Assembly: GCA_965603705.1 (NCBI GenBank)
Contig: CBFDDY010000001.1
Location: 1-53,563 of the forward strand
Direction: 5' to 3'
Length of the DNA: 53,563 nucleotides
Source of the DNA: an uncultured bacterium
Lineage (GTDB): Bacteria > Acidobacteriota > Aminicenantia > Aminicenantales > Aminicenantaceae
Of the stretch, positions 33,930-52,218 are shown piece by piece (within the stretch, counting starts at the first letter, position 1; every line of letters starts with the position of its first letter). The translations under genes and the position numbers were made by a program. The notes beneath the pieces were generated by a model that was given only the letters and a program-made list of their open reading frames with translations, ran no database searches and was not told the origin of the DNA.

Positions 33930-33933
33930 TAGG

Positions 33934-34605
33934 TTACTCTTCATTCTCAATCCACCCGTCCTTCAGGTGGATAATGCGATGACCATAGGCTGCCTTCTCT
34001 TCTGAATGGGTGACCTGCAAAATGGTCATTCCCTCTTCTTCATTTAATTTTTTTAAAAGATCCATAATTTCTTTCCCCTGTTTGGAATTTAGGTTTCCAG
34101 TTGGCTCATCAGCCAACAGGAGTCTGGGTCTAATAATCAGAGCCCGAGCCACTGCTGTTAACTGTTGTTGACCACCAGACAGTTGAGCGGGAAAAAGATT
34201 TTTTTTTGCTACAATATTAAAACGATCCAGCATATCTGCTACCAGGCCTTTTCGTTCCGAAGATTTTACTTTTTTATATAAGAGAGGGGTTTCAATATTT
34301 TCATACACAGTCATCTCATCAATTAAATGATACTGCTGGAATATAAATCCTATGTTATGATGGTGAAGGGCTGTGCGTTCTTTCTCTTTTAACTGATGGG
34401 CCGGTTCATCCATAAAATAATATTCCCCCTCAGAGGCTGTATCAAGCATCCCCAGGATATACAGCAGCGTGGATTTTCCCGCCCCTGAAGGGCCCATGAT
34501 GGTAATAAACTCGCCCTCTTTAACCTCCAAGTTGATACTTCTCAAGACAAAGGTCTTAACAAACTTATTGGTATAATATTTATTAATATCATTTAATCTA
34601 ATCAT
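33934..34605 (-). CDS. ABC transporter ATP-binding protein (MacB/LolD-type NBD), copy 1
   Basis: 223 aa. Walker A GPSGAGKST, signature LSGGQQQ, Walker B LLLADEPTGNLN (Asn where the family normally has the D-loop Asp), H-loop VTHS. Confidence 0.9.
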   Translation of the reverse strand: MIRLNDINKYYTNKFVKTFVLRSINLEVKEGEFITIMGPSGAGKSTLLYILGMLDTASEGEYYFMDEPAHQLKEKERTALHHHNIGFIFQQYHLIDEMTVYENIETPLLYKKVKSSERKGLVADMLDRFNIVAKKNLFPAQLSGGQQQLTAVARALIIRPRLLLADEPTGNLNSKQGKEIMDLLKKLNEEEGMTILQVTHSEEKAAYGHRIIHLKDGWIENEE

Positions 34606-34617
34606 TTTTTTCCCCTT

Positions 34618-36927: not shown

Positions 36928-36947
36928 TTTTCAGCCCCGATCAGTTC

Positions 36948-37160
36948 TTACTTTTTTACCCGGTACAGAACTGCCCCTAGATACCCTGATTCATTGATTT
37001 CTGCTATATACAATCCTGGCTGGTAATGAGAGCGAATTGATAATTTTGATTCTGATAATTCATTTAAGAGACTGGCTGGCGAGTGGCTACCATTTGCATT
37101 ATAGAGGAAAAAACTTTCTGTCTCCTCCTCCAGTTTGGTCAGTATATCTTTAAGACTCAT
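36948..37160 (-). CDS. Hypothetical 70-aa soluble protein embedded in the efflux operon
   Basis: ORF with GGGAG 6 nt upstream of its ATG, lying between ATPase copy 2 and paralogue 7. No TM segment and no recognisable motif (MSLKDILTKLEEETESFFLYNANGSHSPASLLNEL...). Confidence 0.45.
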   Translation of the reverse strand: MSLKDILTKLEEETESFFLYNANGSHSPASLLNELSESKLSIRSHYQPGLYIAEINESGYLGAVLYRVKK

Positions 37161-37215
37161 TTCTGGCTCCCTATTGATTATTTACTTCTCTGCTAATTTT
37201 CCTGTTTGTCTACTC

Positions 37216-37905
37216 CTACAAATGAAACTCCTCCTTGACATTTTCTGTGACAATATGGCCGTCAAATAGATGGATTACTCTCTGGCTATATTCAGCATAG
37301 ACCGGCGAGTGAGTCACCATTATTATGGTGGTCCCTTCCTCATGCAACTGGGTAATTAAACTCATGACCTCTTCTCCATTCTCTGAATCAAGATTACCGG
37401 TCGGTTCATCCGCCAGGATCAATTTTGGTTTGGTCACAATAGCCCTGGCTACAGCCACCCTTTGCTGCTGACCCCCGGAGAGCTGCTGGGGAAAGTGTTT
37501 TCTGCGGGGAACCAGTTTTAACCGTTCCATCACCTCTTCCGCTGTTTTCTTCCGGTCGGTGGCTGATGCTTTTAAATACAAAAGGGGTAATTCAATATTT
37601 TCATATACTGTCAACTCATCAATGAGGTTAAAACTCTGGAAAACAAAACCAATGTTTCCCTTCCTCAAATTGGTCCTTTTCCGTTCCGGGAATTTTGCAA
37701 CATCCCCCCCCAGAAACAAGTATTCCCCTTCAGAAGGATTATCCAAAAGTCCCAGAACATTAAGAAGAGTGGATTTGCCACACCCTGAGGGGCCCATAAT
37801 AGAGACAAATTCCCCTTCCTTTACCTTCAGGTTAACATTGTTTAGCGCTGTGGTCTCAACCTCATCAGTGGTGTAAATTTTTTTCAAATTCTTTGTTTCA
37901 ATCAT
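37216..37905 (-). CDS. ABC transporter ATP-binding protein (MacB/LolD-type NBD), copy 2
   Basis: 229 aa. Walker A GPSGCGKST, LSGGQQQ, Walker B plus canonical D-loop LILADEPTGNLD, H-loop VTHS. Confidence 0.9.
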   Translation of the reverse strand: MIETKNLKKIYTTDEVETTALNNVNLKVKEGEFVSIMGPSGCGKSTLLNVLGLLDNPSEGEYLFLGGDVAKFPERKRTNLRKGNIGFVFQSFNLIDELTVYENIELPLLYLKASATDRKKTAEEVMERLKLVPRRKHFPQQLSGGQQQRVAVARAIVTKPKLILADEPTGNLDSENGEEVMSLITQLHEEGTTIIMVTHSPVYAEYSQRVIHLFDGHIVTENVKEEFHL

Positions 37906-37936
37906 ATTGATATCTCCTTGATAAAATCATTTTATT

Positions 37937-39196
37937 TTAATTATCTTTAAGAATTAACTCCTCAGCCTTACCAAAATTATCATAGGAAGAGGTAATTACT
38001 TTATCACCCGGCTCTAACCCCTCTAATACTTCGAAAAATAAAGGATTCTGCCTGCCCAGTTTTATGTCTCTTTTTATTGCTCTCTGTTCCTTTTCATTCA
38101 GAATAAAGACCCAATATCCTCCACTTTTTTGATAAAAACCACCCTTAGGTAATAAGAGTGCCTCTTCCAGATCTCCCAGTTCAAACCGAATATGCAGGGT
38201 TTGACCTCGACGAATTCTCTGAGGCTGTTGATCTATAAATATAAAATCTACCTTAAACTCATTTTCTTCAACCTCTGGATAGACCATGGTAGATTTCAGT
38301 TTGAAATCCTTCCCTGAATAAGGAAATGTCCCGGTTCTGCCAACCTCGACCCGGGTTATATAATGCTGATCTATTGGAGATCTTACTTTAAAACTGTTAA
38401 TAACATCCACTTGTCCCAACCGTATACCCCGAGGCATAGACTCACCGATTTGAAACTCAATCAAACTGAGTAGTCCTTCAATAGGGGCTTTAATGGTTAA
38501 TTCATCCTGCTTTTGCATAATAATTTTTAAATTACCCCTCATTCTGTTTAAGGATGATTCCAACTGTTGAATTTGCTGCTGACGAAATGATATGTCTGTT
38601 TCTTTTGAACGCCTGGTTAATTCATATTTTTCTTTTAGATAATTACAGTTATTTTCAGCTGTCTCAAAATCCTGTTTGGAGACTAGTTTTTCTTTAAATA
38701 AATAGGTGTATCTTTCATATTTATTCTGAGCTTCTTTTAACTCAAACCCAATCTGAGCCAGCTGCTGATCCAGCATTATGCCATAACGTTCAAGGTCCAA
38801 CTTGGTATTTCTCAGATTGTTGATCTGTCGATATAGTTCTGCTTCCCGGTACATAATATCCAGTAATAGGTTGGTATTGGAAAGCTTTAGAATTCTATCA
38901 CCTTTTTTTACATATAAACCAGGCTGAGCAAAAATCTTCTCAATCCGTCCTCCTTCGGTGGCTACTAAATACCTGGTATCTATAGGGATAACTTCACCTA
39001 CTATCGGGATGAATTCTTGAAAAGGTCCTTTAGTAACGGTAGAAACAGTCAATCGTTCTTTATTAACTCGCAACTGGTTGCTTTTTATAGTAAGTAGGGT
39101 ATATATTACAAAAATTATAAAAAGTCCGCTTAAAGACAAAATAACTATCCGTTTAGGCGTCCATCTTTTTTTCTTTATTTTTCGATCCATACTCAT
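37937..39196 (-). CDS. HlyD/MFP-family periplasmic adaptor (membrane fusion protein)
   Basis: 419 aa. N-terminal anchor (MSMDRKIKKKRWTPKRIVILSLSGLFIIFVIYTLL), lipoyl-like halves flanking a long coiled-coil (LDLERYGIMLDQQLAQIGFELKEAQNKYERY...), and a beta-barrel C-terminal part. First gene after cassette A. Confidence 0.85.
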   Translation of the reverse strand: MSMDRKIKKKRWTPKRIVILSLSGLFIIFVIYTLLTIKSNQLRVNKERLTVSTVTKGPFQEFIPIVGEVIPIDTRYLVATEGGRIEKIFAQPGLYVKKGDRILKLSNTNLLLDIMYREAELYRQINNLRNTKLDLERYGIMLDQQLAQIGFELKEAQNKYERYTYLFKEKLVSKQDFETAENNCNYLKEKYELTRRSKETDISFRQQQIQQLESSLNRMRGNLKIIMQKQDELTIKAPIEGLLSLIEFQIGESMPRGIRLGQVDVINSFKVRSPIDQHYITRVEVGRTGTFPYSGKDFKLKSTMVYPEVEENEFKVDFIFIDQQPQRIRRGQTLHIRFELGDLEEALLLPKGGFYQKSGGYWVFILNEKEQRAIKRDIKLGRQNPLFFEVLEGLEPGDKVITSSYDNFGKAEELILKDN

Positions 39197-39228
39197 ATTT
39201 TACTCCTGCACTTATTCACTCATTTATA

Positions 39229-39355
39229 TTCAAGAATCATGCCAAAAATTATAAAGTAAATAGAATCAACCTTTTAGAGGTTAATCCTTGAAAAATTCCC
39301 AAAAAATCCTCTTGATTATGTTTGGAAATGAACACAATCTGTCCGTTAATGAACA
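39229..39355 (-). promoter_or_regulatory. Regulatory cassette copy A: sigma-54-like -24/-12, IHF-like site and two UAS dyads, upstream of the adaptor-led operon
   Basis: Minus strand: TTGGCATGATTCTTGAA (rc of 39229-39245; fits TGGCAC-N5-TTGC apart from two mismatches, C to T and C to A). WATCAANNNNTTR match AATCAACCTTTTA at 39264-39276. Dyads TGTTCATTTCCAAACA (rc of 39319-39334) and TGTTCATTAACGGACA (rc of 39340-39355), 21 bp start-to-start. 7 mismatches in 127 positions versus copy D, by my count. Confidence 0.6.
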
Positions 39356-39387
39356 GCTTTTTAAAGGTGGAAAGGGAATCCCCAGAT

Positions 39388-41745
39388 TTATTCATAGTGG
39401 AGGGACTCAGCGGGGTTTGCCCGGGCGGCTTTGATGGCCTGGTAGCTCACGGTCAGCAGCGCGATGAGGAGGGTCGCCAACCCAGACAAAATGAATATTT
39501 CCGGGCCGATATGCGTTCTATAGGCATAACGTTCGAGGATTCTCCGCATCATGAAATAGGCAACAGGCCAGGCTATAACATTGGACAGCAACACCCATTT
39601 AGTGAAGTCTCTGGACAGCATGAATACCACGTCTTTTATGGAAGCACCCACAACCTTGCGGACGCCGATCTCTTTGGTGCGCCGTTCCGCCATAAAGGCA
39701 GTAAGGCCAAAAAGTCCGAGACTGGATATAAATAAGGCGAGCAGAGTGAAATACCCGGCAATTTTTCTCGCCTGCCTCTCTGTGGTGTAGATGTAGTTGG
39801 TGAGAACATCATTGAAGAATATGGGATTTGCCGGAGAGTCGGATTCGAATTTTGAGAAAGCTTTGTTGATGTGTTGCAAAGTCCCGGAAATGTTTTCCGG
39901 TCGTATCCTGACAAATGCAAGGGATCCGGAATCGGGCCTGAGCATGAAGACAAACGGCCTGACCTCATGATAAAGAGGCTGGAAGTGGAAGTTCTTCACA
40001 ACTCCGATGATCTTTCCTTCGTTCCGGAAAACTGACAGCCGCTTCCCGACAGGCAATTCCATTCCCATCATCTTCACCGCCTCCTCGTTCACGATGTAGG
40101 CCTCTTTTTGATCCGTGGAATATTCTCTGGAAAATGCCCGTCCTTCCATAATCTCCATATCAAGAGTGGCAAAATAATCGTATCCCACATAATCCCAGTG
40201 CATGCTCACAGTCTCATCCGGCGGCTTGCCGTCCCAGTCCACAGCGCCGACCGTAGACCCAATGTTCCATGGCCCCTGAAGACTTCTTGTCACGCCTTGG
40301 ACCTGATGATTATTCAGCAGGTCGTTCCTAAATGGCTCGAATCGCTCCTGCATTTGTTGACTCATCCGGACCATAACCAAGTTTTCTCTGTCGAATCCCA
40401 GGTCAGTGCTCATCACAAATCCGAGTTGTCTGGAGAGGACGACCGTGCTGATGATCATGATGATCGTGAGCGAAAACTGAACAACAACGAGGGTTTTGCG
40501 CAGGGAGCTCTTGATCCTGCTTCGGATCAGACCTTTAAGGATGTTCCCGGGTTGAAAGGCCGAAAGATACAGAGCCGGATAAGCTCCGGCGAGGGCTCCT
40601 GTAAACAGGGCTATTCCCAAAAAACCAAGGGCGACGACCGGTTTGAGCAGGAGACGCAGCGAAAACTGTTTTCCCAAGAGTTCATTAAACGTCGGGAGAA
40701 AGGCCGCTATAAGAGCGACCGCGATTAGCAAGGCAATGAGGGAAATCATCAGGGATTCACCGATAAACTGGCGGACAAGGTCGATCTTCCTCGCGCCGAT
40801 CACCTTGCGAACTCCGACTTCCTTTGCCCGGGTGGTCGCCTTGGCCGTGCTCAAGTTCATGAAGTTAATGCATGCGATAAGCAGAACAAAAAGGGCGATA
40901 CCAGAAAAAATCAAAAGGGATTGGATCAGACCGCCTCCTGCAGGGGAATACAAGTGTTTTTTTGTCAGGGGGTGTAGGTGAAATGTGACCTTCACATTTT
41001 CCCACTGTGCGTGTTTCTCTACGATCGTGGTGATCTTTTGCTCCACTTCAAGACGGTCAACATCCTTATGCAGCAGGACGTAGGTATTGAGCGGATTTCC
41101 TCCCCAGTGCTCAGGCTCCTTAAAATTCGGGGCAAATTTAAGGGCATAGGGCATGACGCAGTCAATCTGGAGAGAGGACTGTGTTGGGACATCCACCATG
41201 ACACCTGTGACCTGGATAACCACTTCGTTGTTCAAGGTGAGTGTTTTCCCAATGGGATCATCATTCCCAAAATATTTTTTGGCCATCTTTTCTGTCAGGA
41301 CAACGGAATAGTGCTCCGTCAGAGCCGTATCTGGATTGCCTTTTACAAAGGGAAAGGAAAAAACATCAAAGAAGCCCGGGTCGGCCAGGCCGACAGCATC
41401 GCTGGTGAATCGTTTCTCCCCATGACTTAACAACAACCCGGTTGCGTTTTCATACCGGATGGCCTCGATAACTTCTGGGCACTCCTCCTTCAGAATCTTG
41501 GCGAGGGGGTAGTAAGAGCCCATGTTTATCCGACTGCCTCCACTTGTGTTCAACATTTCGCAGTATACCTGGGAGATGTCATTCTTATTCACATGAAACC
41601 GGTCATACCCGAATTCATGCTGGACCCACAGGAAGATAAGAAGGCAAACAGCCATCCCGATAGAAAATCCCACGATGTTAATAACCGAATGAAGCGTGTG
41701 TTTTCGGATATTTCTAAGGGTCATTATGAAATAATTTTTAAACAT
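39388..41745 (-). CDS. Duplicated FtsX/MacB-type ABC permease, paralogue 8 (visibly higher G+C)
   Basis: 785 aa. MFKNYFIMTLRNIRKHT. Motifs AKEVGVRKVIG and TKEIGVRKVVG. Ends NPAESLHYE*. GGGAGGG ribosome-binding site upstream. Confidence 0.9.
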   Translation of the reverse strand: MFKNYFIMTLRNIRKHTLHSVINIVGFSIGMAVCLLIFLWVQHEFGYDRFHVNKNDISQVYCEMLNTSGGSRINMGSYYPLAKILKEECPEVIEAIRYENATGLLLSHGEKRFTSDAVGLADPGFFDVFSFPFVKGNPDTALTEHYSVVLTEKMAKKYFGNDDPIGKTLTLNNEVVIQVTGVMVDVPTQSSLQIDCVMPYALKFAPNFKEPEHWGGNPLNTYVLLHKDVDRLEVEQKITTIVEKHAQWENVKVTFHLHPLTKKHLYSPAGGGLIQSLLIFSGIALFVLLIACINFMNLSTAKATTRAKEVGVRKVIGARKIDLVRQFIGESLMISLIALLIAVALIAAFLPTFNELLGKQFSLRLLLKPVVALGFLGIALFTGALAGAYPALYLSAFQPGNILKGLIRSRIKSSLRKTLVVVQFSLTIIMIISTVVLSRQLGFVMSTDLGFDRENLVMVRMSQQMQERFEPFRNDLLNNHQVQGVTRSLQGPWNIGSTVGAVDWDGKPPDETVSMHWDYVGYDYFATLDMEIMEGRAFSREYSTDQKEAYIVNEEAVKMMGMELPVGKRLSVFRNEGKIIGVVKNFHFQPLYHEVRPFVFMLRPDSGSLAFVRIRPENISGTLQHINKAFSKFESDSPANPIFFNDVLTNYIYTTERQARKIAGYFTLLALFISSLGLFGLTAFMAERRTKEIGVRKVVGASIKDVVFMLSRDFTKWVLLSNVIAWPVAYFMMRRILERYAYRTHIGPEIFILSGLATLLIALLTVSYQAIKAARANPAESLHYE

Positions 41746-41851
41746 CGTTACCCTCCCGTAAAGCGATGCATATATAAATCCCGCTTAAAAACAGAATAGC
41801 AATCCGTTTAGGCGTCCATATTTTTTTCTTACTTTTTCGATCCATGCTCAT
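41738..41851 (-). pseudogene. Remnant of the adaptor (HlyD-type) gene 5' end, forming a 37-codon upstream ORF that overlaps the paralogue-8 start
   Basis: My translation, MSMDRKSKKKIWTPKRIAILFLSGIYICIALREGNDV*, against the adaptor N-terminus MSMDRKIKKKRWTPKRIVILSLSGLFIIFVI. Nucleotide similarity runs for ~90 nt and then stops. Its stop (TAA 41740-41738) overlaps the permease start in ATGTTTAA. Confidence 0.7.
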
Positions 41852-41883
41852 ATTTTACTTCTGCACTTTTTCATTTATTTATA

Positions 41884-42010
41884 CTCAAGAATCATGCCAA
41901 TATCTGTAAGGTAAATAGAATCAACCTTTTAGAGGTTAATCCTTGAAATATTTCCAAAAAATCCCCTTGATTATGTTTGGAGCCGAACACAATCTGTCCG
42001 TTAATGAACA
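41884..42010 (-). promoter_or_regulatory. Regulatory cassette copy B, upstream of permease paralogue 8
   Basis: Same architecture and spacing as copy A. -24/-12 is the rc of 41884-41900 (TTGGCATGATTCTTGAG). IHF-like site at 41919-41931. Dyads are the rc of 41974-41989 (TGTTCGGCTCCAAACA) and of 41995-42010 (TGTTCATTAACGGACA). Confidence 0.6.
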
Positions 42011-42041
42011 GCTTTTTAAAATTAAAGCCCATAGTGTTCCT

Positions 42042-44459
42042 TTATTCATACCGTAGACTGTTAATGGGATTGGCCAATGCGGCTTTGAGAACCTGGTAGC
42101 TGATAGTTATCATGGTAATAGCCAGTGCAATCGCTAAGGCGAAAATAAAAAACATAATATTCAGAGAGGTGCGGAAGGCAAAACCTGACAGCCACTCCCT
42201 CATCACAAAATACGCAACAGGCCACGCAATCACATTGGCAGCAATCACCCATTTGAAAAACTGCTTGGAGATAAGAATAAATATTGAGGGAGTGGAAGCC
42301 CCATGAACTTTGCGGATCCCGATCTCTTTTCTCCGCTGTTCTACAGTAAAAGAGGCTATGCCGAAGAGGCCCAAACAAGCGATAAAAAGGGCCAGAACAG
42401 TGGCAATATTGATGAGTATGCCGACCTTTCGGTCATTTTCATAAAGCTTCTCGATGGATTCATCCAGAAACTTATATTCAAAAGGATGTCCCGGGGCCAC
42501 CTTCCGCCAGATTTCTTTAAGTGTGGAAAGAATCTCCGTCAGATTCCCCGGCCGGACCTTGACTAGAAGGATGTCATAATCATCCGGTGTATAGATCATT
42601 CCAAGGGGAGCTATAGCATTGTGGAGGGTGTCAAAGTGGAAATCCTTAACAATCCCAATGATACGAAAATTACGGATCCTCTTCCCGATGGGATCCTTCA
42701 TACCTATGGCTTTGATGGTTGTCTCATTTACTATAATCGGAAGTTCTCCCTCACTTTTTTCCTCTGCTTTGAAAAACCTGCCCTCAACAAGATCTAGACC
42801 AAAAACCTTCAGATAATCATGATCAACGGATAAAAGATCCATCAAATAAGTAGCATCTGTATCCCGGCCTTCCCATTCATTCAGAGTCATAGACCTATGA
42901 TTGCCGGCGGGAGCATCGGAAGCCGCTGTAACTGCGATCGCTGCTGTGTTTCTCGAAATCTCTTTTTTTAGAACTTGAAATTTTTCATCCAGGTCTCCTT
43001 TCAGATCAAGACAGAGAATATGGTCTTTTTCGATTCCTAAATTCATGTTCCGGATATAATGCATCTGGCGGTTGATTATTACAGTCCCAATAATCAGGCA
43101 AATGGTCAGCACAAACTGAAAAACAACCAGTATTTTTCGGAACAAGCCTCCCCCGGTTCCGGATAAAGATTTCTTTTTCAGCGCTTTGATGGGCTGGAAA
43201 GAAGAGAGAAAAAGAGCAGGGTAACTGCCAGCGATCACTCCGGTAAGAGCGGCAATTCCCAGAAGGCTTAAGATAAGAGTCAGTTGAGAAGTAATCTGGA
43301 AGGTCATCTCTTTTCCGGTCAAAGAGTTGAAGGCAGGCAGCAACAACTGAGCAAGGCTTACGGCAAAAATGAGCGCCATAAAAGCCAGGAGGATGGATTC
43401 ACCAAAGAACTGGGAAATAAGATTTCCCCGCTTGGCACCAACAACTTTCCTCAATCCAACCTCAAGGGCACGGTTTTCGGATCGGGCTGTAGTCAGGTTC
43501 ATAAAATTGATGCAGGCAATCAGGAGAATAAAAAAGGCTATTAGAGAGAAAATATATACATATCTGATGTCCCCGTCCGTACCGGAAGCACGGATCCCTG
43601 TTGAGTACAGATGAACTTTTGTAAATGGCTGCAGGGAAAGTGTCATTATGGTTCCTTCATCATATTTTTTTAAAAATCCTTCAATTTGTGTATTGAATTT
43701 TAGATAATCTATTTGTTTACTCAAGAGGATATATGTATGAATTCCATAACTACCCCAATCGTCCATTTTCCAGCCATATTTTTCCAAGGAGATAAAAGGA
43801 ACCACAAAATCACATTGTATCTGGGAATTATGCGGGATGTTTTTCAGAACACCCGTGACCTGAAATTCATGTTTTCCGTCCACCTGAATGACTTGCCCGA
43901 TAGGATCCTTCCCTTTGAAGTATTTTTGAACCATCTCTTCAGTCAGAACAATGGAAGCAGGAGCCGAAAGTATTGTATCCACATTGCCTTGAAGGAGGGG
44001 AAATGTAAATATTTTGAAAAGCTCAGGATCAGCGAAGGCAAAGCCATCCTCGTAAAAGCTATTATCTCCGAACCGAACAATTCTTCCGCGGGAACGTCTA
44101 AAACGAACCGCCTCGAGGACCTGTGGATAATCTTTTTTAAAGGCAGGGCCAAAACCTGTTGGAAAGACAGGATAAGCGAGAATCCGACCGTCTGACATTT
44201 GTTCGTGCTCCACAGCTCGAAAAAGCTGATCGGCATTTTCGTGAAAGCAGTCGAAACTCAATTCATTCCAAACCCAGAGTAGAATCAGAATGCAGGAGGC
44301 CATTCCGACCGTAAGCCCAGCCAGGTTGATAAAGGAATAAGCCTTATGCCTTTTGATTTTACGGAAGGCGATTTTAATATAGCTCCATACTAGGGAAGGC
44401 TTGACATAGAAGGGATGCCAAAACGGACGACTTCTTTTTTTATTTTCAAGATCAAACAT
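42042..44459 (-). CDS. Duplicated FtsX/MacB-type ABC permease, paralogue 9 (higher G+C, N-terminal extension)
   Basis: 805 aa. Motifs ALEVGLRKVVG and RKEIGIRKVHG. Ends NPINSLRYE*. The family N-terminus appears as ...SLVWSYIKIAFRKIKRHK without a Met and is preceded by a basic 22-24-aa extension (MFDLENKKRSRPFWHPFYVKP). GAGGTG ribosome-binding site before the ATG at 44459. Confidence 0.85.
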   Translation of the reverse strand: MFDLENKKRSRPFWHPFYVKPSLVWSYIKIAFRKIKRHKAYSFINLAGLTVGMASCILILLWVWNELSFDCFHENADQLFRAVEHEQMSDGRILAYPVFPTGFGPAFKKDYPQVLEAVRFRRSRGRIVRFGDNSFYEDGFAFADPELFKIFTFPLLQGNVDTILSAPASIVLTEEMVQKYFKGKDPIGQVIQVDGKHEFQVTGVLKNIPHNSQIQCDFVVPFISLEKYGWKMDDWGSYGIHTYILLSKQIDYLKFNTQIEGFLKKYDEGTIMTLSLQPFTKVHLYSTGIRASGTDGDIRYVYIFSLIAFFILLIACINFMNLTTARSENRALEVGLRKVVGAKRGNLISQFFGESILLAFMALIFAVSLAQLLLPAFNSLTGKEMTFQITSQLTLILSLLGIAALTGVIAGSYPALFLSSFQPIKALKKKSLSGTGGGLFRKILVVFQFVLTICLIIGTVIINRQMHYIRNMNLGIEKDHILCLDLKGDLDEKFQVLKKEISRNTAAIAVTAASDAPAGNHRSMTLNEWEGRDTDATYLMDLLSVDHDYLKVFGLDLVEGRFFKAEEKSEGELPIIVNETTIKAIGMKDPIGKRIRNFRIIGIVKDFHFDTLHNAIAPLGMIYTPDDYDILLVKVRPGNLTEILSTLKEIWRKVAPGHPFEYKFLDESIEKLYENDRKVGILINIATVLALFIACLGLFGIASFTVEQRRKEIGIRKVHGASTPSIFILISKQFFKWVIAANVIAWPVAYFVMREWLSGFAFRTSLNIMFFIFALAIALAITMITISYQVLKAALANPINSLRYE

Positions 44460-44495
44460 TTTATCACCTCAACCTTTAAAAATCCTAAATCTTTA

Positions 44496-44573
44496 CTACA
44501 ATGAGGGCAAAGGCCTCCAGAGTGTTAAAAGATCCTTATATACCCTCATCCAGGGACGCCTCTCCATGCTCAT
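44496..44573 (-). other. 25-codon upstream ORF in the leader of paralogue 9, starting with the adaptor gene's first three codons
   Basis: ATGAGCATGGA (rc of 44563-44573) matches the adaptor start ATGAGTATGGA. After that the sequence is unrelated (MSMERRPWMRVYKDLLTLWRPLPSL*). Whether it is translated is unknown. Confidence 0.3.
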
Positions 44574-44605
44574 ATTTTAGTCCTGTACTTTTTCCCTCAT
44601 TTACA

Positions 44606-44734
44606 ATCAAGAATCATGCCAAAAATTATAACGTGAATAGAATCAAGCCTTTAGAGGTTAATCGTTAATTAAATTTACAAAAAAATCCTCTTGATCATGT
44701 TTGGAAACGAACACAATCTGTCCGTATATGAACA
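44606..44734 (-). promoter_or_regulatory. Regulatory cassette copy C, upstream of permease paralogue 9
   Basis: -24/-12 is the rc of 44606-44622 (TTGGCATGATTCTTGAT). IHF-like AATCAAGCCTTTA at 44641-44653. Dyads are the rc of 44698-44713 (TGTTCGTTTCCAAACA) and of 44719-44734 (TGTTCATATACGGACA), 21 bp apart. Confidence 0.6.
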
Positions 44735-44746
44735 GCTTTTTAAAAA

Positions 44747-47095
44747 TTATTCGTATCTCAAACTTTTAATCGGGTTTGCAATTGCCGCTTTAATGGATTG
44801 GTAGCTCACTGTCAAAAAAGAAATCAAGATTGCAGCAAATGCAGCAATTAAAAATGTAACAATCCCAATATTTATTTTGTAAGCAAAGGTTTGCAGCCAT
44901 TTATTCATTGCAAAATAGGAGATAGGCCAGGCAATAACAATTGCAATGAATACCCATTTTGTAAATTGTTTTGTCAACATACTTACAATTTCCGGAACAG
45001 ATGCCCCCATAACTTTTCTAACACCAATTTCTTTGGTTCTCTGAATTGTGGAAAAAGAAGCCAAACCAAATAAACCAAGACAGGCGATAAATAAGGCAAG
45101 TAAGGCAAAAAATGTAAAAATACTCTCCACTTTTTTTTCAAGTTTGTAGGAAGAATTAAAAACATCATCAAAGAATTTATATTCGAATGGATAATTGGGA
45201 GAAAATTTTGCTATTGTTTCTCGAATAAATGTTACTGTTTTTGGGACATCTTTTTCTTTTGCTTTAATAGATAAATTTCGATTTGCTCTTTCCGGATTTA
45301 AATCCAAACAGATCGGCTGAATGGATTCATGAAGCGGCAACATGTGAAAATCTTTGACAATCCCGACAATTTTCCCGCTTCTTCCTCCTAAAAAATGTTT
45401 AAATTCTTTACCAACCGGATTTTCCAAGCCGATTTCCTTAACAGCAATTTCATTTAAGAGGAAAGCTCCGGTAGCATCAGAGGAAAAGTCTTTGGAAAAA
45501 TTTCTACCTTCCACGATTTTAATCTCATAAAGATCAACATAATTATAATCTATAAAGTTTATAAAAATTTCTTGTTTTTTATCTTCTGGTTTTCCAGGCC
45601 AATCTGCAAGAGTTGCAGCCCCGGATTCATTTGGTAAATCAAAACAGGAAGAAACGGCTAAAATATTTGGATTTTTTTCTAATTCATTTTTAATCGATTC
45701 AATATTGCTTCGGAGTTTGTTGTCGCGAATATCGACTACGATAATATGGTCTTTGACAAAACCAACATCTTTATTGCGAATGAAATACATCTGATCTTTG
45801 ATAGTCAATGTGGCAATAATTAGAATGATGGAAATCATAAATTGACCAACAACAAGGCTGTTACGCAGTTTTGATCTTTTTGTACCTGCAATTTGATTTC
45901 GAAAAGTTGTCATTGGATTAAAGGTTGAAATGGCGAAAGCAGGATATCCTCCGGCAATGACACTTACAAAAATTAGCAACACAATTAGCCAGGATAAAAA
46001 TTGCATGTTTTCGAATAGGTTAAAATTCAAATTCCGTTCTGCAAAAACATTGAATGAAGGCAATAATAGCCAAACCAAAATGGTTGCCAGAAAAAAAGCT
46101 AAAATCGAAAAAAGGATCGATTCTCCTAAAAACTGTTTAATCAATTGAGGCCTGGTTGAGCCAATCACTTTGCGAATTCCGATCTCTTTCATCCGTTGAG
46201 CAGAACGTGCAGTAGCCAAATTTATGTAGTTTATACAAGCGATGATCAGGATTAAAATGGCAACGGAAGTTAGTAAATAGATTAGTTTGACTTGATCTGA
46301 TTGCAAATGAATTTTAGTAAGAGGTTGAAATTCAAATTGTATTTGTTTGGCGGTTTCTTCATCAAAATGTTTTGTTATTAGACTTGGAATTTTACTTTCT
46401 AAATCTTTCAGATTTGATTCTTTATTTAATAAAATATAGGTGCGATAAGAACTATATCTCCAGGATTTATGATCATGAAATGAATCTATTATTTGAGTCG
46501 TTTTAAATGGCGCAAGAAAATCGACAGTAAGAATAGAATTGTCCGGCAAATCTTTCAAAATTCCTGTTATTTTAAAATCATGTTCACTTTTATAGCTGAT
46601 ATTTTTCCCGATTGGATTTTCATTTCCGAAATATTTTTTCGCCATCGATTCTGAAATCACTACAGAATTAGGATCATCCAAGACTGTTTGAGGATCTCCT
46701 TCTAAGAGTTCAAATGAAAAAATGTCAAATGTCTCAGGATCGGTAAAACAGAAACCGTTTTCAAAAAAATTCTTATCTTTATAAGAAATGAAGATTTTCC
46801 CAGTTCGATAAAACCTGGTTGCTGATTCAACCTCTGGAAATTCTGCTTTAAGGGTGGGAGCAAGTGGAGGTTGAGTAAGATTGGAGAGTCGATCAGAACC
46901 TTGTTGGCCTTGTAAAATCCGATAAATTCGATCAGCATTTTTATGATATTTATCAAAACTAATTTCAAACTGAACTAAGAGTAAAATTAAAATCACAGCG
47001 GTGAGCCCTAAAGCTAATCCCGCAATATTGATAAAGGAATATCCTTTGTGTCTTTGAATATTCCTGAATACGATTTTAAGATAATTTTTGAACAT
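44747..47095 (-). CDS. Duplicated FtsX/MacB-type ABC permease, paralogue 10
   Basis: 782 aa. MFKNYLKIVFRNIQRHK. Motifs MKEIGIRKVIG and TKEIGVRKVMG. Ends NPIKSLRYE*. Lies 83 nt downstream of the TolC-type gene with no intact cassette in between. Confidence 0.9.
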   Translation of the reverse strand: MFKNYLKIVFRNIQRHKGYSFINIAGLALGLTAVILILLLVQFEISFDKYHKNADRIYRILQGQQGSDRLSNLTQPPLAPTLKAEFPEVESATRFYRTGKIFISYKDKNFFENGFCFTDPETFDIFSFELLEGDPQTVLDDPNSVVISESMAKKYFGNENPIGKNISYKSEHDFKITGILKDLPDNSILTVDFLAPFKTTQIIDSFHDHKSWRYSSYRTYILLNKESNLKDLESKIPSLITKHFDEETAKQIQFEFQPLTKIHLQSDQVKLIYLLTSVAILILIIACINYINLATARSAQRMKEIGIRKVIGSTRPQLIKQFLGESILFSILAFFLATILVWLLLPSFNVFAERNLNFNLFENMQFLSWLIVLLIFVSVIAGGYPAFAISTFNPMTTFRNQIAGTKRSKLRNSLVVGQFMISIILIIATLTIKDQMYFIRNKDVGFVKDHIIVVDIRDNKLRSNIESIKNELEKNPNILAVSSCFDLPNESGAATLADWPGKPEDKKQEIFINFIDYNYVDLYEIKIVEGRNFSKDFSSDATGAFLLNEIAVKEIGLENPVGKEFKHFLGGRSGKIVGIVKDFHMLPLHESIQPICLDLNPERANRNLSIKAKEKDVPKTVTFIRETIAKFSPNYPFEYKFFDDVFNSSYKLEKKVESIFTFFALLALFIACLGLFGLASFSTIQRTKEIGVRKVMGASVPEIVSMLTKQFTKWVFIAIVIAWPISYFAMNKWLQTFAYKINIGIVTFLIAAFAAILISFLTVSYQSIKAAIANPIKSLRYE

Positions 47096-47103
47096 GATTG
47101 AAA

Positions 47104-47154
47104 TCCATATGAATGATTGGATTAAAAATTATAGCCCATATTAACCTCAGTATT
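47104..47154 (-). repeat. Decayed partial fifth copy of the regulatory cassette (distal flank only)
   Basis: 47121-47154 (attaaaaattatagcccatattaacctcagtatt) aligns without gaps to 50771-50804 in copy D (tttaataattataggccatattgactttggtatt), 27 of 34 by my count. tccatatgaatga (47104-47116) looks like a degraded distal dyad. The -24/-12, the IHF-like site and the proximal dyad are missing. Confidence 0.45.
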
Positions 47155-47178
47155 CCGGAATAACTATTGTCACTGGTT

Positions 47179-48738
47179 TTAAAGGGGGGATATCTGAAAA
47201 AATTTTATGTCTTTACTCTCAAGAGTTGTTCCCAGCGTTTTTTCCAGCCCTGCTAAAGAGAGATTATAATCAATGACTGCTCTAATTTCAGCGCTTTTTG
47301 CATTTGCAAGGTCTCTTTGATACTGAAGCACAGTATAGTTTGTTGAAAGTCCTACTATCAGTTTTTTCTCTTCCGCCGCAAGTGTTTTTTCAGCAAGTTC
47401 TCTTGCTGTCTTATAGGCATGGACTCGCTTATAATTAGACATTACATTGCGAACGGCATTTCTTATTTCCAGAAATGCCTGTTGTTCATCATTCTGTAAT
47501 TTAAATTTCGCCTGTTTAAAATTAACTTTTGCCTGGGCAAACCGAGCACGAGAAAAAATCGTCGCCACAGGAATGGAAAGGGTCAGCCCTACAGACCAGT
47601 TTTTATAAGCAAAAGAAAAAGTGTCTTTTAAAGATTTGGTAGCATCCCCAGGAGTTTTTCCCACTACGACATCTGTAAGGGGATTATTATCTTGATAAAG
47701 TATCTGGGTTCCTGATACACCAGGGCTCCAGTATGAAACATCAAAACTTAAGCCAGGAAGAAGCTGATTCTTGGCATAACTTAATTCAACATCTTTACTT
47801 TTTATGTCAATACGGCTTGCCTTAAGGTCAGGTCTGTTCTGCATCCCAATCAGCAGGGCCTCATCAAGACTTATATCATTTTCTTTATAAGTCGGCTCAT
47901 CAATAGGGATTATATTTTTCATCTTTACATCTTCCTCTGCAACAAGATTAATAATAGTTTTCAAGGTGTCTTCATTGTTTTTAACCAGATAATCAGCTTC
48001 TATAATATCAGCTTCTCTGGCAGCTACTTCAGATTCAGCACTCAATACCTCTATGGGAGCAAGTACACCTACTTCCACCTCTTTTTTGTTTTTTGCCAGT
48101 AAGTCAAGGGCAAGTTTAAGAGACTGTTGCTTTGCTTTAAGGTTTTCTATGCTGAACACAAGTTCCCAGTAAGCTTCTTCAACATTATAAATAGTCTGTA
48201 TAAGTGATTCTTTAAAATTTGCCTCTGATATTTGAGTGTTGTTATTAGCTACAATGATTTCCCTGCGAGTCACTTTAAATCCAAAATCCTTTAAAAGAGG
48301 TTGAGACAAGCTAAATGAAAGCGAGCTACCGTAGCGGGGATTTATTGTCTGAAACTTCCTGCTGGAATCACTTTTGTAAGAATAAAGGGATACGGAAAGA
48401 CTCCCTCCTGTAGGAAAGAGCTGCTCTAATTGGACGCCGTAATCATCAACCATAGAGGTTACTTGTACTGCTGCATCAATCCAAGAAAAAGAAGGATTAT
48501 TGGTCTCCTGTGTTCCATAATTAAAAGATAGTGAAGGCAGAAATATTTCTTTCTCCACAGAAGCAGATATGTCTGCGAGCTCTGGATTTAAAACTTCAAC
48601 AGCTATGTTTAGATTGTTTTTCAAAGCACCTAATATGCATTCCTCAAGAGTAATAGGAATTTTACTCTCCTGACCGCTAAATGTGACTGCTGATAATAAT
48701 ATAATTAAAATACTTATTCCCGTTATCTTTTTATACAT
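47179..48738 (-). CDS. TolC/OEP-family outer-membrane efflux protein
   Basis: 519 aa. Signal peptide MYKKITGISILIILLSAVTFSG. Two-fold internal repeat of coiled-coil and beta-strand segments typical of outer-membrane factors. Confidence 0.85.
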   Translation of the reverse strand: MYKKITGISILIILLSAVTFSGQESKIPITLEECILGALKNNLNIAVEVLNPELADISASVEKEIFLPSLSFNYGTQETNNPSFSWIDAAVQVTSMVDDYGVQLEQLFPTGGSLSVSLYSYKSDSSRKFQTINPRYGSSLSFSLSQPLLKDFGFKVTRREIIVANNNTQISEANFKESLIQTIYNVEEAYWELVFSIENLKAKQQSLKLALDLLAKNKKEVEVGVLAPIEVLSAESEVAAREADIIEADYLVKNNEDTLKTIINLVAEEDVKMKNIIPIDEPTYKENDISLDEALLIGMQNRPDLKASRIDIKSKDVELSYAKNQLLPGLSFDVSYWSPGVSGTQILYQDNNPLTDVVVGKTPGDATKSLKDTFSFAYKNWSVGLTLSIPVATIFSRARFAQAKVNFKQAKFKLQNDEQQAFLEIRNAVRNVMSNYKRVHAYKTARELAEKTLAAEEKKLIVGLSTNYTVLQYQRDLANAKSAEIRAVIDYNLSLAGLEKTLGTTLESKDIKFFQISPL

Positions 48739-48833
48739 TTTTATTCTCCTGATAAAGTTTTTCTTTCTGGCAGATTAATTGTCATTTATCTATTAACTAT
48801 TAAGCAATAAATAGGCGTCAGAGTTCTAACTAC

Positions 48834-50594
48834 TTATTTTCTTATAAACATCGAACCCAAGAGGCGATCCACCTTTTCATTCTCTAGTTTGAAATCTCTT
48901 ATCTCTCCGTCATCATAGCGGTGGAATATCAAAAAACCCTTATCGTATCCGAAGATGTCTTTTTTCAGCGGTACAAATGAAACATCTAAATCCCCCAGGA
49001 ATTCACCCGTAAAAAGACGGCCGGCCATTGTCGAAAACCGATATGTTTTCTGAAGCTCCACCGAGAAATACCTTCCCTCGTACTCGGAAAAGTCAAATTC
49101 CACAGGAGGCTTGATCTTTTTGGCCTCATCCTGCAGTTTGTCTTTTGAAAAGAGGGCAAGCTTATATCCGGTTCCTGAAGGTCCTTCTGTGAAGCGGTAC
49201 TGTAGCCCTCTTATCCCATCGACATCGAAAACGCCCTGCCCTCGATGCTGCAGTTCCCGGGGCATGATGGCTTCGCCGATATTCCCGAACTGCTCCGACA
49301 AAACGCGGCGGGAAAGACTGCCGTTCTCATGGTAGATACAGACAAGCGAGCCGCTTCCCAATTGATAAAAGCCTTCCCAGCCTGCCGATTCTTTCGGATC
49401 CCACGGGACGGCGGTGTCCGGTTCCTTCCCTTCGGCTCCCCGGGGCGGGCCGAAGTCCATCCTCAGTTCTTCGACCAGGAAGTCACCCACCTTCTCGAAA
49501 ATATCGAAGAGTGATATCTGGTCTGACTGGATATTGCTCAAGGCAATCAGGCAGGCGTCCTTCTCGATAAACCTGTCCATGAGAGCCCGAAATCCATATG
49601 AAGAGCCTCCGGCTCGAACGATCGTTAAATTGTCTTTGCCGTCATTATAATGGGCGGACATGACGATTCCGGCCAGAGAAATATCGGAAGAATGCGGTTC
49701 AAGAAGCATTTTTTTGTTTTTTTCAGATAGGATGTTGTCGCCAACGAAATCCAATATTTTCTGAAAACTATACAGGTCTTTGGCGGTGCTCAGGATGTTA
49801 CCGGCGGCAAGGCGCGTCGATTCCTCCTCGATAGTGGCGAGTGCGTACCCTTCCAGGCCCTTCTGATAGCCGGTGGCCATATTCTTATGGATGGTCCTGT
49901 TGTTGTGCACATGAGTGTCTTTCATGCCCAGAGGACCAAAAATATTTTCCTCCAGCAGTTCTGCATAGGACTTCCCCGACACGGCTTCCAGGATAACGCC
50001 CAGTACATAATATCCGGGACTGGAATAAGTCATCCGTTCACCAGGCTCGTGCTGAAGATCGATGTCCCAGAAATGCTTCATAAACTCCAGGGGCGTGTGG
50101 AAATACTTGTCATGCACATCGAAGTACCGGGGGATGCCGATGAAATGGTGGGGGATGCCCGATTTGTGTTCCAGCAGATGACGGACTGTAATTATAGAGG
50201 CGTTTTTCTTGGGGAAATATGGGAGATAGGAGTCGATTGTTGCGTCAAGATTAATAAGACCCTTCTCAGCCATCTGCAGCACTAGGACTGCCGTGAATTG
50301 TTTTGTTATGGACCCGATGAGATATTTTGTGTCGGGTTTGTCGGGAATGTCGAAACTCCTGTTGGCGACACCGTAACCTTTGTGGACAAGAATCTTCTCT
50401 CCTACGCCAATCAAAATTGTTCCGTTGAATGGAACAGGGAGGGAGTCGAGAAATTGATCGACCTTTTCTTTCAGAGACACAGTAAGGCCTGTGTCCCCCC
50501 CCTGCTTTAGAGGATCTGCATATAAACGCAAACCACAATTGATAAACATCAGTCCGACCGAAAAAACAACTGCATACAGATGATATTTTTTCAT
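48834..50594 (-). CDS. Secreted beta-lactamase-fold serine hydrolase (class C / PBP4*-like) with a ~200-aa C-terminal extension
   Basis: SxxK nucleophile motif in IGSITKQFTA, followed by YSSPGY. Signal peptide MKKYHLYAVVFSVGLMFINCG. I start it at the ATG at 50594; the track's TTG at 50597 is an alternative. First gene after cassette D. Confidence 0.8.
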   Translation of the reverse strand: MKKYHLYAVVFSVGLMFINCGLRLYADPLKQGGDTGLTVSLKEKVDQFLDSLPVPFNGTILIGVGEKILVHKGYGVANRSFDIPDKPDTKYLIGSITKQFTAVLVLQMAEKGLINLDATIDSYLPYFPKKNASIITVRHLLEHKSGIPHHFIGIPRYFDVHDKYFHTPLEFMKHFWDIDLQHEPGERMTYSSPGYYVLGVILEAVSGKSYAELLEENIFGPLGMKDTHVHNNRTIHKNMATGYQKGLEGYALATIEEESTRLAAGNILSTAKDLYSFQKILDFVGDNILSEKNKKMLLEPHSSDISLAGIVMSAHYNDGKDNLTIVRAGGSSYGFRALMDRFIEKDACLIALSNIQSDQISLFDIFEKVGDFLVEELRMDFGPPRGAEGKEPDTAVPWDPKESAGWEGFYQLGSGSLVCIYHENGSLSRRVLSEQFGNIGEAIMPRELQHRGQGVFDVDGIRGLQYRFTEGPSGTGYKLALFSKDKLQDEAKKIKPPVEFDFSEYEGRYFSVELQKTYRFSTMAGRLFTGEFLGDLDVSFVPLKKDIFGYDKGFLIFHRYDDGEIRDFKLENEKVDRLLGSMFIRK

Positions 50595-50640
50595 CAATTT
50601 TTTCTCTTTTTTTACTCCTACACCTTTTCACGCATTTACA

Positions 50641-50767
50641 TTCAAGAATCATGCCAAAAATTATAACGCAAATAGAATCAACCTGTTAGATGTTAATCCT
50701 TGAAAAATTTCCAAAAAATCCTCTTGATTATGTTTGGAAATGAACACAATCTGTCCGTATATGAACA
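50641..50767 (-). promoter_or_regulatory. Regulatory cassette copy D, in the divergent intergenic region between the hydrolase operon and the sigma-54 activator gene
   Basis: -24/-12 is the rc of 50641-50657 (TTGGCATGATTCTTGAA). IHF-like AATCAACCTGTTA at 50676-50688. Dyads are the rc of 50731-50746 (TGTTCATTTCCAAACA) and of 50752-50767 (TGTTCATATACGGACA). Confidence 0.6.
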
Positions 50768-50790
50768 TATTTTAATAATTATAGGCCATA

Positions 50791-50820
50791 TTGACTTTGG
50801 TATTGATCTTGCTTTATCAT
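50791..50820 (+). promoter_or_regulatory. Candidate sigma-70-type promoter for the activator/kinase operon
   Basis: TTGACT (50791-50796), an 18-nt spacer, then TATCAT (50815-50820). Caveat: the predicted start site would fall within or next to the GAGGGA ribosome-binding site (50825-50830), leaving a very short leader. Confidence 0.3.
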
Positions 50821-50835: not shown

Positions 50836-52218
50836 ATGGAAAATCAGATTGAGGCCAGAGTGTTAATCGTAGATGATGATCTGGGTGTATTACAGGCAGC
50901 GCAGTTCTATTTAAAGCAATATGTAAAATTAATAGATATCAGGGACAATCCCGAAGAAATGATCCGGGCCTTTCAACCGGGACAGTACGACGTTATCCTT
51001 CTGGATATGAACTTCACACTGGACCTCACCAGCGGGGAAGAAGGATTATACTACCTTAGAGAATTAAAAAGAATCGATCCTGCAATTGAGGTTATTTTGA
51101 TTACTGCTTATGGGGATGTGGAATTAGCAGTAAAAGCCATCAAAGAGGGGGCCACTGATTTTATTTTAAAACCCTGGCAGAATGAAAAATTATTAGCCAC
51201 GGTTACCACCACATTTAAATTATATCAGAGCAGGAACAGGATTAAGATTCTTCAATTCCAAAAAGAACAGCTTATTGATAATATTAATAAGCATTTTTAT
51301 AACCTCATTGGGACTTCCAAACCAATGCAGGATGTTTTTTCTATAATCAAAAAGGTTTCTAAAACCGATGCCAACATATTGATCACCGGGGAGAATGGTA
51401 CCGGAAAAGAATTGGTTTCAAGAGCTATCCATCGGGATTCCTTGCGCTGTCATGAACCCTTTATCAGCGTAGATATGGGAGCAATCAGCGAAACGCTGTT
51501 TGAGAGTGAATTATTCGGACATAAAAAGGGTTCTTTTACCGATGCTAAAAAAGATAGGGCAGGACATTTTGAAATCGCTTCCAGTGGGACTCTCTTTTTA
51601 GATGAAATAGGAAATCTCCCTTATCCCTTACAGGCAAAAATTCTGCGGATTATGGAAAGCCGGGAAGTAAAAAGATTAGGAAGCAATCAAACCATCCCCA
51701 TTAATATTCGCCTAATTTGCGCCACCAACCTGGATATCCACAAAATGGTGAAGGAACGTAAATTTCGAGAAGACCTCCTTTATAGGATAAATACCATTGA
51801 AATAAAGCTACCACCCCTCAGGGATCGGGACCAGGATATCATCCTACTGGCCAATACATTTCTGGAACAATACTGTAAAAAATATAAAAAATCCCTCAAA
51901 ACCCTCACAACAAAAACCCAGGAAATGTTAAAAGTATACCATTGGCCTGGCAACATAAGAGAGTTAAAACATTCTACTGAAAGAGCCGTGATAATGAGTG
52001 ATAAGGACCGCTTAACTCCCGATGATTTCTTTTTTTCCTCTCAAAAAGACAAGATGGAAAAAGTCCCTGACAACTTAACCTTAGACCATCTTGAGCAGGA
52101 ATTCATAATCAAAACCCTTAAGAAACATAATAAAAATATTTCAAAGGCTGCCAAAGAACTGGGTTTGTCCCGTTCAGCTTTATACCGCAGAATGGATAAA
52201 TACAATATCACTCTATGA
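50836..52218 (+). CDS. NtrC-family sigma-54-dependent response regulator (REC + AAA+ + Fis-type HTH)
   Basis: 460 aa. Receiver (VLIVDDD...DVILLDMNF...ILKPW). AAA+ Walker A GENGTGKE, Walker B LFLDEIG, and GSFTDA at the position of the GAFTGA sigma-54-contact loop. C-terminal HTH NISKAAKELGLSRSALYRRM. Confidence 0.9.
   Translation: MENQIEARVLIVDDDLGVLQAAQFYLKQYVKLIDIRDNPEEMIRAFQPGQYDVILLDMNFTLDLTSGEEGLYYLRELKRIDPAIEVILITAYGDVELAVKAIKEGATDFILKPWQNEKLLATVTTTFKLYQSRNRIKILQFQKEQLIDNINKHFYNLIGTSKPMQDVFSIIKKVSKTDANILITGENGTGKELVSRAIHRDSLRCHEPFISVDMGAISETLFESELFGHKKGSFTDAKKDRAGHFEIASSGTLFLDEIGNLPYPLQAKILRIMESREVKRLGSNQTIPINIRLICATNLDIHKMVKERKFREDLLYRINTIEIKLPPLRDRDQDIILLANTFLEQYCKKYKKSLKTLTTKTQEMLKVYHWPGNIRELKHSTERAVIMSDKDRLTPDDFFFSSQKDKMEKVPDNLTLDHLEQEFIIKTLKKHNKNISKAAKELGLSRSALYRRMDKYNITL

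Follow-up and report, generated by a model that had tools for sequence, protein, structure and literature searches.

Why should one non-coding block stand four times, with little change, among the genes of a single transporter array? The question is posed by a 53,563-nt stretch of DNA from an uncultured bacterium of the Aminicenantaceae (Acidobacteriota; contig CBFDDY010000001.1), referred to here as the window and analysed over its full length. On its minus strand, between 39.1 and 50.8 kb, the block occurs in four copies, each oriented in the sense of the gene whose start it precedes. The array encodes a MacAB-TolC-like tripartite ATP-binding cassette (ABC) exporter with duplicated, ADOP-like permeases; Pfam matches cover all four component types, with an HlyD-type adaptor, two ABC ATPases, MacB_PCD+FtsX permeases and an OEP/TolC protein, along with a beta-lactamase-fold protein. 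The answer we favour, with a probability of about 0.78, is that each copy of the block (a cassette) would be a complete sigma-54-dependent enhancer-promoter module, switched by the neighbouring two-component system, and that the copies were multiplied by gene insertion.

Copy A (39197-39365) lies directly before the adaptor (HlyD/MFP) gene that heads an operon of 11 open reading frames (ORFs) and 19.6 kb. Copy B (41852-42020) and copy C (44574-44744) stand upstream of permeases 8 and 9, and copy D (50609-50777) sits before the operon of the beta-lactamase-fold lipoprotein, TolC and permease 10. Over 176-178 nt, measured from about 17 nt upstream of the distal of two dyads to the last base before the start codon, the four are 81-88% identical in pairwise comparison; relative to A, B differs at 12% and C at 15% of positions. 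Copies A and D show exactly 7 mismatches over 127 nt, a recount that agrees with a preliminary description of this DNA made from the sequence alone, which had also placed the four cassettes correctly on the minus strand and whose inferred gene content Pfam bears out. The proteins of the ten permease paralogues (~780 aa, MacB_PCD+FtsX) are just 34-42% identical, so that the cassettes are much more alike than the genes behind them, again as first described. One 16-nt element, TTGGCATGATTCTTGA, is exact in all four copies (39230-39245, 41885-41900, 44607-44622 and 50642-50657, minus strand) and has no match elsewhere in the window with up to three mismatches allowed. An nhmmer profile built from the four copies found no diverged fifth copy in the whole window, and an Rfam scan of the entire window gave no match. 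The repeats are not an assembly artefact, since independent contigs from other metagenomes carry the copies: two (L087, L090) hold A, B and C in identical order at 97-99% identity, and two more (L088, L001) carry copy D.

Read in the sense of the genes, each cassette consists of two 16-bp TGT-N10-ACA dyads, a spacer rich in T-tracts, the element TTGGCA-TGATTC-TTGA, an AGGAG ribosome-binding site and the start codon. The internal spacing is fixed, as had been reported: the start-to-start distance of the dyads is 21 nt, and TTGGCA follows the proximal dyad after 73 nt (75 in C, owing to a 2-nt spacer insertion), while the ribosome-binding site and start codon follow about 22 nt past the -24/-12 element. 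Counted with the A of TTGA at -12, the centres of the dyads lie near -130 and -108 relative to the predicted start, upstream of a match to the IHF consensus at about -52 and of the -24/-12 element itself. In copy A, the distal dyad TGTTCATTAACGGACA occupies 39340-39355 and the proximal dyad TGTTCATTTCCAAACA 39319-39334 (both minus), the IHF-consensus match AATCAACCTTTTA (consensus WATCAANNNNTTR; a consensus match only) lies at 39264-39276 on the plus strand, and the predicted transcript start at ~39218 is followed by the ribosome-binding site at 39203-39207. The distal and proximal dyads are at 41995-42010 and 41974-41989 in B, at 44719-44734 and 44698-44713 in C, and at 50752-50767 and 50731-50746 in D, with predicted starts at ~41873, ~44595 and ~50630 on the minus strand. 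These copies also have an IHF-consensus match on the strand opposite to the genes (B, 41919-41931; C, 44641-44653; D, 50676-50688). The dyad motif TGTYC-N7-RACA has 12 matches in the window, all of them inside the four cassettes, against 1.15 expected, and none of 100 shuffles reached 12. A hairpin within the cassette was considered as an intrinsic terminator and rejected, being stable in A and B (-11.8 kcal/mol) but not in C (-4.6) or D (-7.0), with changes that are not compensatory.

The distribution of sequence changes follows this anatomy. In 10 cassette copies drawn from several strains, the dyad half-sites and the -24/-12 block account for 36 columns, all of them invariant, whereas 49 of the remaining 132 vary (Fisher p = 7e-7); of the 12 columns at the dyad centres, 5 vary. 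The element TTGGCATGATTCTTGA is exact in 11 copies, four in the window and seven from other strains. Such invariance is the footprint expected of binding sites under selection, and it bears directly on a different explanation, in which only copy A, and perhaps D, works, B and C are passengers of recombination, and the inserted permeases 8 and 10 are read through from D. What speaks for this is that B and C are followed by useless remnants of the adaptor gene, that one promoter per locus is enough in all relatives examined, and that the units of the array run in one direction, 2-25 nt apart, without a conserved terminator between them. However, B and C each match A at all 36 motif columns despite their 12% and 15% divergence, where some 4-5 changes in each would be expected under neutrality. 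The motif positions are likewise unchanged in the strain variants L090, L086 and L089, and in a further contig (L091), whose spacer has lost 33 nt, dyads and promoter are still retained before a permease 10-like gene. We therefore regard passenger copies as unlikely. Between units so tightly packed and lacking a conserved terminator, B, C and A may nevertheless be internal promoters of one ~31-kb array; the proposal of a single sigma-54 regulon made up of four transcription units thus gains support from comparison as to the regulon, but not as to the separateness of the units.

A candidate for the protein that would use these sites is encoded next to copy D. Divergent from it, on the plus strand at 50836-52218, lies an NtrC-type response regulator with REC, sigma-54-interaction AAA+ and HTH_8 domains (Pfam Response_reg, Sigma54_activat at 5.5e-67, and HTH_8), in keeping with the earlier identification of a sigma-54 activator at this place. 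No NCBIfam equivalog reached its cut-off for this protein, the best being PEP_resp_reg (416 bits, cut-off 503). Among its 120 closest homologues, the loop that contacts sigma-54 reads GAFTDA in 80 and GSFTDA in 40, retaining the F and T and replacing G with D. Its closest named relatives are from Candidatus Aminicenantes, including an activator 97% identical in the metagenome-assembled genome CSMAG_2585 of GTDB (L006). The cognate histidine kinase follows at 52215-53558 (plus strand). Its topology, as read from the sequence, comprises two N-terminal membrane helices joined by a loop of ~4 residues, an arrangement from which one may speculate that the stimulus is probably sensed in the membrane, in the cytoplasm or via the transporter.

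The same architecture recurs well beyond this genome. The activator family (55-73% identity) extends through Acidobacteriota, Balneolales, KSB1, Ignavibacteria, Chrysiogenia, Latescibacterota and Cytophagales, and it usually adjoins genes for an adaptor, an ATPase, FtsX-type permeases and TolC. Of 40 orthologous adaptor genes, ~20, spread over at least 10 lineages, have GGCA-N6-TTG at 22-64 nt upstream of their start, where ~0.3% would be expected by chance. At -12 these promoters carry the canonical TTGC in six lineages (L005, L018, L024, L045, L063 and L068; for example TGGCATCATTCTTGC in L005 and TGGCACCATTTTTGC in L018), TTGA, like the window, in four (L004, L054, L065 and L072), and TTGT in Roseivirga, so the -12 base is variable within the promoter family. 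A pair of dyads 21 bp apart with a promoter 51-97 nt further on is present in L004, L005, L020, L024, L045, L048, L053 and L065. The dyad consensus is TGTnCG-N4-CGnACA, in which positions 5-6 and 11-12 are conserved though the search pattern did not demand them. Among the Cytophagales loci, the strict dyad pattern occurs only in L048 (Marinoscillum); TGTnCG-type dyads and TGGCA elements are visible by eye in these loci. The relatives always have a single dyad-promoter set, which mostly adjoins the activator gene and points the same way as the divergent operon. In none of the relatives' loci examined outside this species group did the cassette occur more than once, and a search of their 21-kb loci for a reiterated promoter flagged only repeats in L048 and L055, both of them coding.

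How far do these observations support a sigma-54 promoter? The element has TGGCA with GG at -24, TTG at -14 to -12 and the fixed 10-nt spacing from GG to G(C), and the predicted dyads near -108 and -130 fall within the ~80-150 bp from the start at which enhancer sites are expected. Several points weigh against our reading. TGGCAC-N5-TTGCW with up to two mismatches occurs 23 times in the window, no more often than the 21 expected by chance; the -12 dinucleotide of the window element is GA and not GC, and the base following TGGCA is a T; and the regulator's contact loop (...GHKKGSFTDA...) is GSFTDA in place of the canonical GAFTGA. The IHF consensus is loose, and its matches across the window are as many as chance would give. 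The lack of a conserved terminator weakens the need for internal promoters, and the four copies share one ancestor, so that within this genome they amount to one independent observation. A bare motif match proves little, and the case accordingly rests on context, comparison and conservation. It is in these terms that the originally proposed fit to the sigma-54 consensus holds: the element is present in every copy and its relatives conserve it, but the match as such is at chance frequency. An RpoN-box search of the window and of the relatives' loci covered by it gave a sole match, in an unrelated Cytophagales locus (L082), and we found no literature on sigma-54 in Aminicenantes.

The chance frequency of the consensus also invites the explanation that the cassette holds an ordinary sigma-70 promoter, with the dyads as operators for a repressor or another regulator and the sigma-54 resemblance a coincidence. 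Indeed, A, C and D have TATAAT immediately before TTGGCA, and in D it scores 10/12 as CTAACA-18-TATAAT. Yet it is lost in B (TACAGA), in L086 (TACAAA) and in L091 (TATGAA), while the 16-nt -24/-12 block is invariant in 11 of 11 copies, and in A, B and C nothing at 16-18 nt passes as a -35 element. In other phyla, the orthologous promoters retain TGGCA-N6-TTGC with no -10/-35 pair, and the adjoining regulator is of the obligate sigma-54 activator type. With its TATAAT not conserved and no proper -35, we rejected the sigma-70 promoter as very improbable.

If the cassettes are sigma-54 modules, then activator binding, sigma-54 dependence, start sites and a part for IHF, as we infer them, would combine in the following way. 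An oligomer of the phosphorylated NtrC-type regulator would bind the two dyads, which are spaced by two helical turns. The intervening DNA would be bent, and so helped to loop, by an IHF-like protein at about -52, by phased T-tracts, or by both, and the ATPase of the regulator would remodel the closed complex of RNA polymerase and sigma-54 at TTGGCATGATTCTTGA, driving its opening with ATP. Transcription would begin ~22 nt before the ribosome-binding site and ATG. In this manner, one kinase/regulator pair could turn on the whole 31-kb co-directional array from four points, serving hydrolase-TolC-permease 10, permease 9, permease 8 and the adaptor-ATPase-seven-permease operon, and selection since the insertions would have kept the binding sites intact in every copy. 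The regulator probably also drives its own operon from a fifth element. A -24/-12-like sequence, TGGTATTGATCTTGCT (50798-50813, plus strand), lies 38 nt before the activator ATG, with a start predicted by hand at 50824. A TGG(C/T)A occurs 30-50 nt before the activator start codon in ~60 of 86 loci, and it is followed by TTGC(T/A) in the window, L001, L006 and L088, in L004, L005, L024 and L033 (Acidobacteriota-type) and in L068 (Chrysiogenia). Given this recurrence, the two-component operon is probably autoregulated from the copy-D enhancer, through shared use of the D dyads. The element overlaps a sigma-70-like TTGACT-18-TATCAT, which could supply basal expression of the activator.

How a module that is single in the relatives came to be present four times here can be read from the sequences that join the cassettes to their genes. 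Permease 8 (39388-41745, minus strand), behind copy B, is a 5'-truncated copy of an 858-aa PadR-linked ADOP permease. The permeases closest to it come from other Aminicenantes, are 858 aa long and 76-86% identical, and are encoded directly behind a PadR regulator in genomes of ~47-49% GC, by genes with a GC content at third codon positions (GC3) of 0.58-0.61. Permease 8 is missing the first 73 codons and the PadR neighbour, and its GC3 is 0.60, compared with 0.26-0.45 for its neighbours; it is best read as derived from a higher-GC PadR-type ADOP gene. The homology between A and B amounts to 250 nt in all and reaches 81 nt into the adaptor coding sequence (to 39116). Behind B this portion survives in a 37-codon ORF (41738-41851, minus strand), the first 27 codons of which are the adaptor 5' end, MSMDRKSKKKIWTPKRIAILFLSGIYI (MSMDRKIKKKRWTPKRIVILSLSGLFI in A). 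The remnant is joined out of frame to the truncated ADOP-type gene at ~41781/41780 (...AAGCGG running into GATTT...), and the ORF has a stop codon that shares bases with codons 2-3 of permease 8. Permease 8 is absent from L089, a contig of another strain, in which a single cassette and the 5' end of an A-type adaptor gene come immediately after permease 9. Copy C is likewise followed by a short ORF (44496-44573, minus strand; 25 codons), which has an adaptor-type start, ATGAGCATGGA, before it diverges, and which lies upstream of permease 9 (42042-44459, minus strand).

The copy-D operon, composed of the GC-rich beta-lactamase-fold lipoprotein (the hydrolase; 48834-50597, GC3 0.56), TolC (47179-48738) and permease 10 (44747-47095), all on the minus strand, can be set against the Aminicenantes genome L006. 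There, the spacer behind the enhancer that adjoins the activator is of another sequence and holds one additional perfect dyad; a canonical promoter (TGGCATATTTATTGCT) comes next and then TolC, with no hydrolase in between. Permease 10 and cassette C are lacking as well, and permease 9 comes straight after TolC. The window leaves the L006 alignment right after ...GGATTTTTTGG and goes on with the cassette spacer, promoter, leader and hydrolase, to rejoin it inside the old TolC promoter. A relic of this older promoter persists at 48798-48813 (minus strand) as TATTTATTGCTTAATA, the -12 half of TGGCATATTTATTGCTTAATA in L006, its TGGCA half having been lost at the right-hand junction of the hydrolase insertion. 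Two further insertions are thereby indicated, one comprising the hydrolase and the promoter half of copy D, the other permease 10 and copy C. The cassette copies are, on this evidence, best understood as scars of gene insertions whose 'before' states persist in other strains. They appear to have arisen in the lineage of this species, with each inserted gene carrying or duplicating the promoter block, and not to be an ancient design.

Strains differ in further respects. In L087 (a Ga0114922 contig) the second ATPase is joined directly to permease 4, without permeases 5 and 6 (window 29190-33900). The L091 cassette (1553-1700) has its dyads ~42 nt from TTGGCA as a result of the 33-nt deletion and stands directly before the permease 10-like gene, adjoining a divergent MFS transporter gene. 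In L086 (605-4424) and L092 (5090-8909), from another strain, 3.25 kb of inserted DNA interrupt the cassette behind the dyads. This insertion encodes DUF5128 beta-propeller, AhpC/TSA and DUF6431 proteins and a weak IS110-like transposase fragment, and it is flanked by a 285-nt duplication (96% identical) comprising a permease 3' end and the enhancer.

A split copy with a flanking duplication and a transposase fragment, together with several near-identical intergenic copies, might suggest that the cassette is itself a mobile or dispersed repeat, such as a miniature inverted-repeat transposable element or a recombination site, that lies between genes by chance. A search for terminal inverted repeats and target-site duplications, however, found just A/T-rich low-complexity pairs. 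All complete copies are sense-oriented and immediately precede a gene start, all 7 of the 7 stretches recovered by a scan of public metagenomes belong to this transporter and two-component system, and the ends of homology coincide with gene-fusion junctions, not with the ends of an element. A generic repeat, which the preliminary description had named as the outcome that would undo its proposal, was rejected, as the copies in the window and the seven metagenome stretches lack terminal repeats and are confined to this system; we hold it to be extremely unlikely. A more speculative extension of the insertion history, and one we think rather improbable, is that the enhancer-promoter block also acts as a landing pad, a portable homology that captures foreign or orphan genes under one two-component system. 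If true, this would be integron-like gene capture by homologous and illegitimate recombination without an integrase, exemplified by the PadR-type ADOP permease from a higher-GC relative and by the GC-rich beta-lactamase-fold hydrolase, and it would account for the differing sets of cassette-bounded modules, one to each strain examined.

Several known systems resemble the one proposed here. The sigma-54 promoters of the glnAp2 and nifH type, established examples of NtrC and NifA control, have in common with the cassettes two TGT-N10-ACA-type dyads ~110-130 bp upstream, an IHF-type bend site near -50, a GG-N10-G(C) core, and a response regulator of REC, AAA+ and Fis-type HTH domains that is paired with a kinase. 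They differ in that, here, the -12 position is GA, the contact loop is GSFTDA or GAFTDA and not GAFTGA, the targets encode a MacAB-TolC-like exporter whose duplicated permeases are ADOP-like, and the complete module is reiterated four times in 11.5 kb. The BceRS-BceAB modules of Firmicutes also pair an ABC transporter containing an FtsX-domain permease with a two-helix kinase nearly without an outer loop, although those modules use OmpR-type regulators and sigma-70 promoters and have no adaptor, TolC or permease array. By this analogy the kinase may sense through the transporter in a Bce-like manner, which is pure inference. Reiterated nifH promoter regions were reportedly described in the 1980s on the symbiosis plasmids of Rhizobium trifolii and R. 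phaseoli/etli; there, too, duplication and recombination placed near-identical sigma-54 promoters with an activator site before different genes of a regulon. Unlike those plasmid-scattered, NifA-served copies, the present ones are tandem within one transporter array, and each marks an insertion junction. The PadR-linked 'orphan' ADOP permeases of Acidobacteriota (TIGR03434) are represented by permease 8, given its 76-86% identity to members of this group, with a score of 317 bits against the ADOP model that lies below its cut-off. Permease 8 departs from them in its missing 73 codons, in the absence of PadR, and in its place behind a sigma-54 cassette near an ATPase, an adaptor and TolC. The Solibacter paper that we checked for ADOP together with sigma-54 held nothing on the pair.

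A link between sigma-54 and transporters of this kind has been predicted before. A promoter-prediction study (PLoS One 2025; PMC12316311) tied sigma-54 to FtsX-like (COG0577) 'antimicrobial peptide' ABC permeases and ATPases, with enrichment in Gammaproteobacteria, Opitutia and Bacteroidia and no coverage of Acidobacteriota or Aminicenantes; it presented this link to FtsX-type permeases as first evidence (PMC12316311). The novelty that the preliminary description claimed for the arrangement was in this respect overstated. The passages of that study that we consulted describe no cognate activator, enhancer sites or promoter reiteration (PMC12316311). What is new here is the particular two-component system with its dyad consensus, the phylum, and the documented reiteration of a promoter by gene insertion. 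The fifth -24/-12 element, the strain-polymorphic insertions, the permease 8 fusion and the loss of the TolC promoter had not been part of the first description.

No new mechanism is revealed; a textbook kind of switch has been copied with each gene insertion. Its interest lies in providing a concrete regulatory circuit for a widespread and unstudied neighbourhood, an NtrC-type two-component system beside MacB/ADOP-type exporter arrays, which occurs in Acidobacteriota, Bacteroidota and several candidate phyla. The circuit would consist of a kinase and a sigma-54 activator, together with a 16-bp dyad consensus and a -24/-12 promoter whose -12 base varies, and it supplies testable predicted binding sites and transcript starts. 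The locus is also a clean natural record of regulon growth, in which a promoter has been copied along with 27 codons of the gene it first served, an orphan permease has been stripped of its regulator and rewired, and an older promoter has been halved by insertion, with all of these states still polymorphic among strains.

The operon behind copy A (19608-39196, minus strand) encodes, in order, the adaptor, an ABC ATPase, a conserved ORF of ~70 aa, permease 7, the second ATPase and permeases 6 to 1. The length of 19.6 kb first given for it stands, and its ten genes become 11 ORFs when the ~70-aa ORF is counted. This small ORF (36948-37160, minus strand), located between the first ATPase and permease 7, has no match in Pfam or NCBIfam; L004 (57% identical) and L005 (39%) have it at the corresponding place in the operon. 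A linker of ~28 nt, TAATGATTGAGCAATTTTTTGGGAGATAAAA, is nearly identical before the ATG of permeases 1, 2 and 3 (22032-22064, 24430-24457 and 26801-26828, minus strand). Protein identity among these three permeases is only ~38%, and the DNA of the adjoining gene ends shows 78-87% identity; the likeness of the linkers suggests either gene conversion or a constrained element for translational coupling. Elsewhere in the window, a second and unrelated two-component system (9763-12860, minus strand) encodes an OmpR-type regulator and an 805-aa GAF/HisKA kinase; it lies upstream of VWA-domain and transglutaminase-like genes, with no cassette near. A 116-aa ORF at 9297-9647 (minus strand) matches only the C-terminal end of class I/II aminotransferases and is probably a gene fragment.

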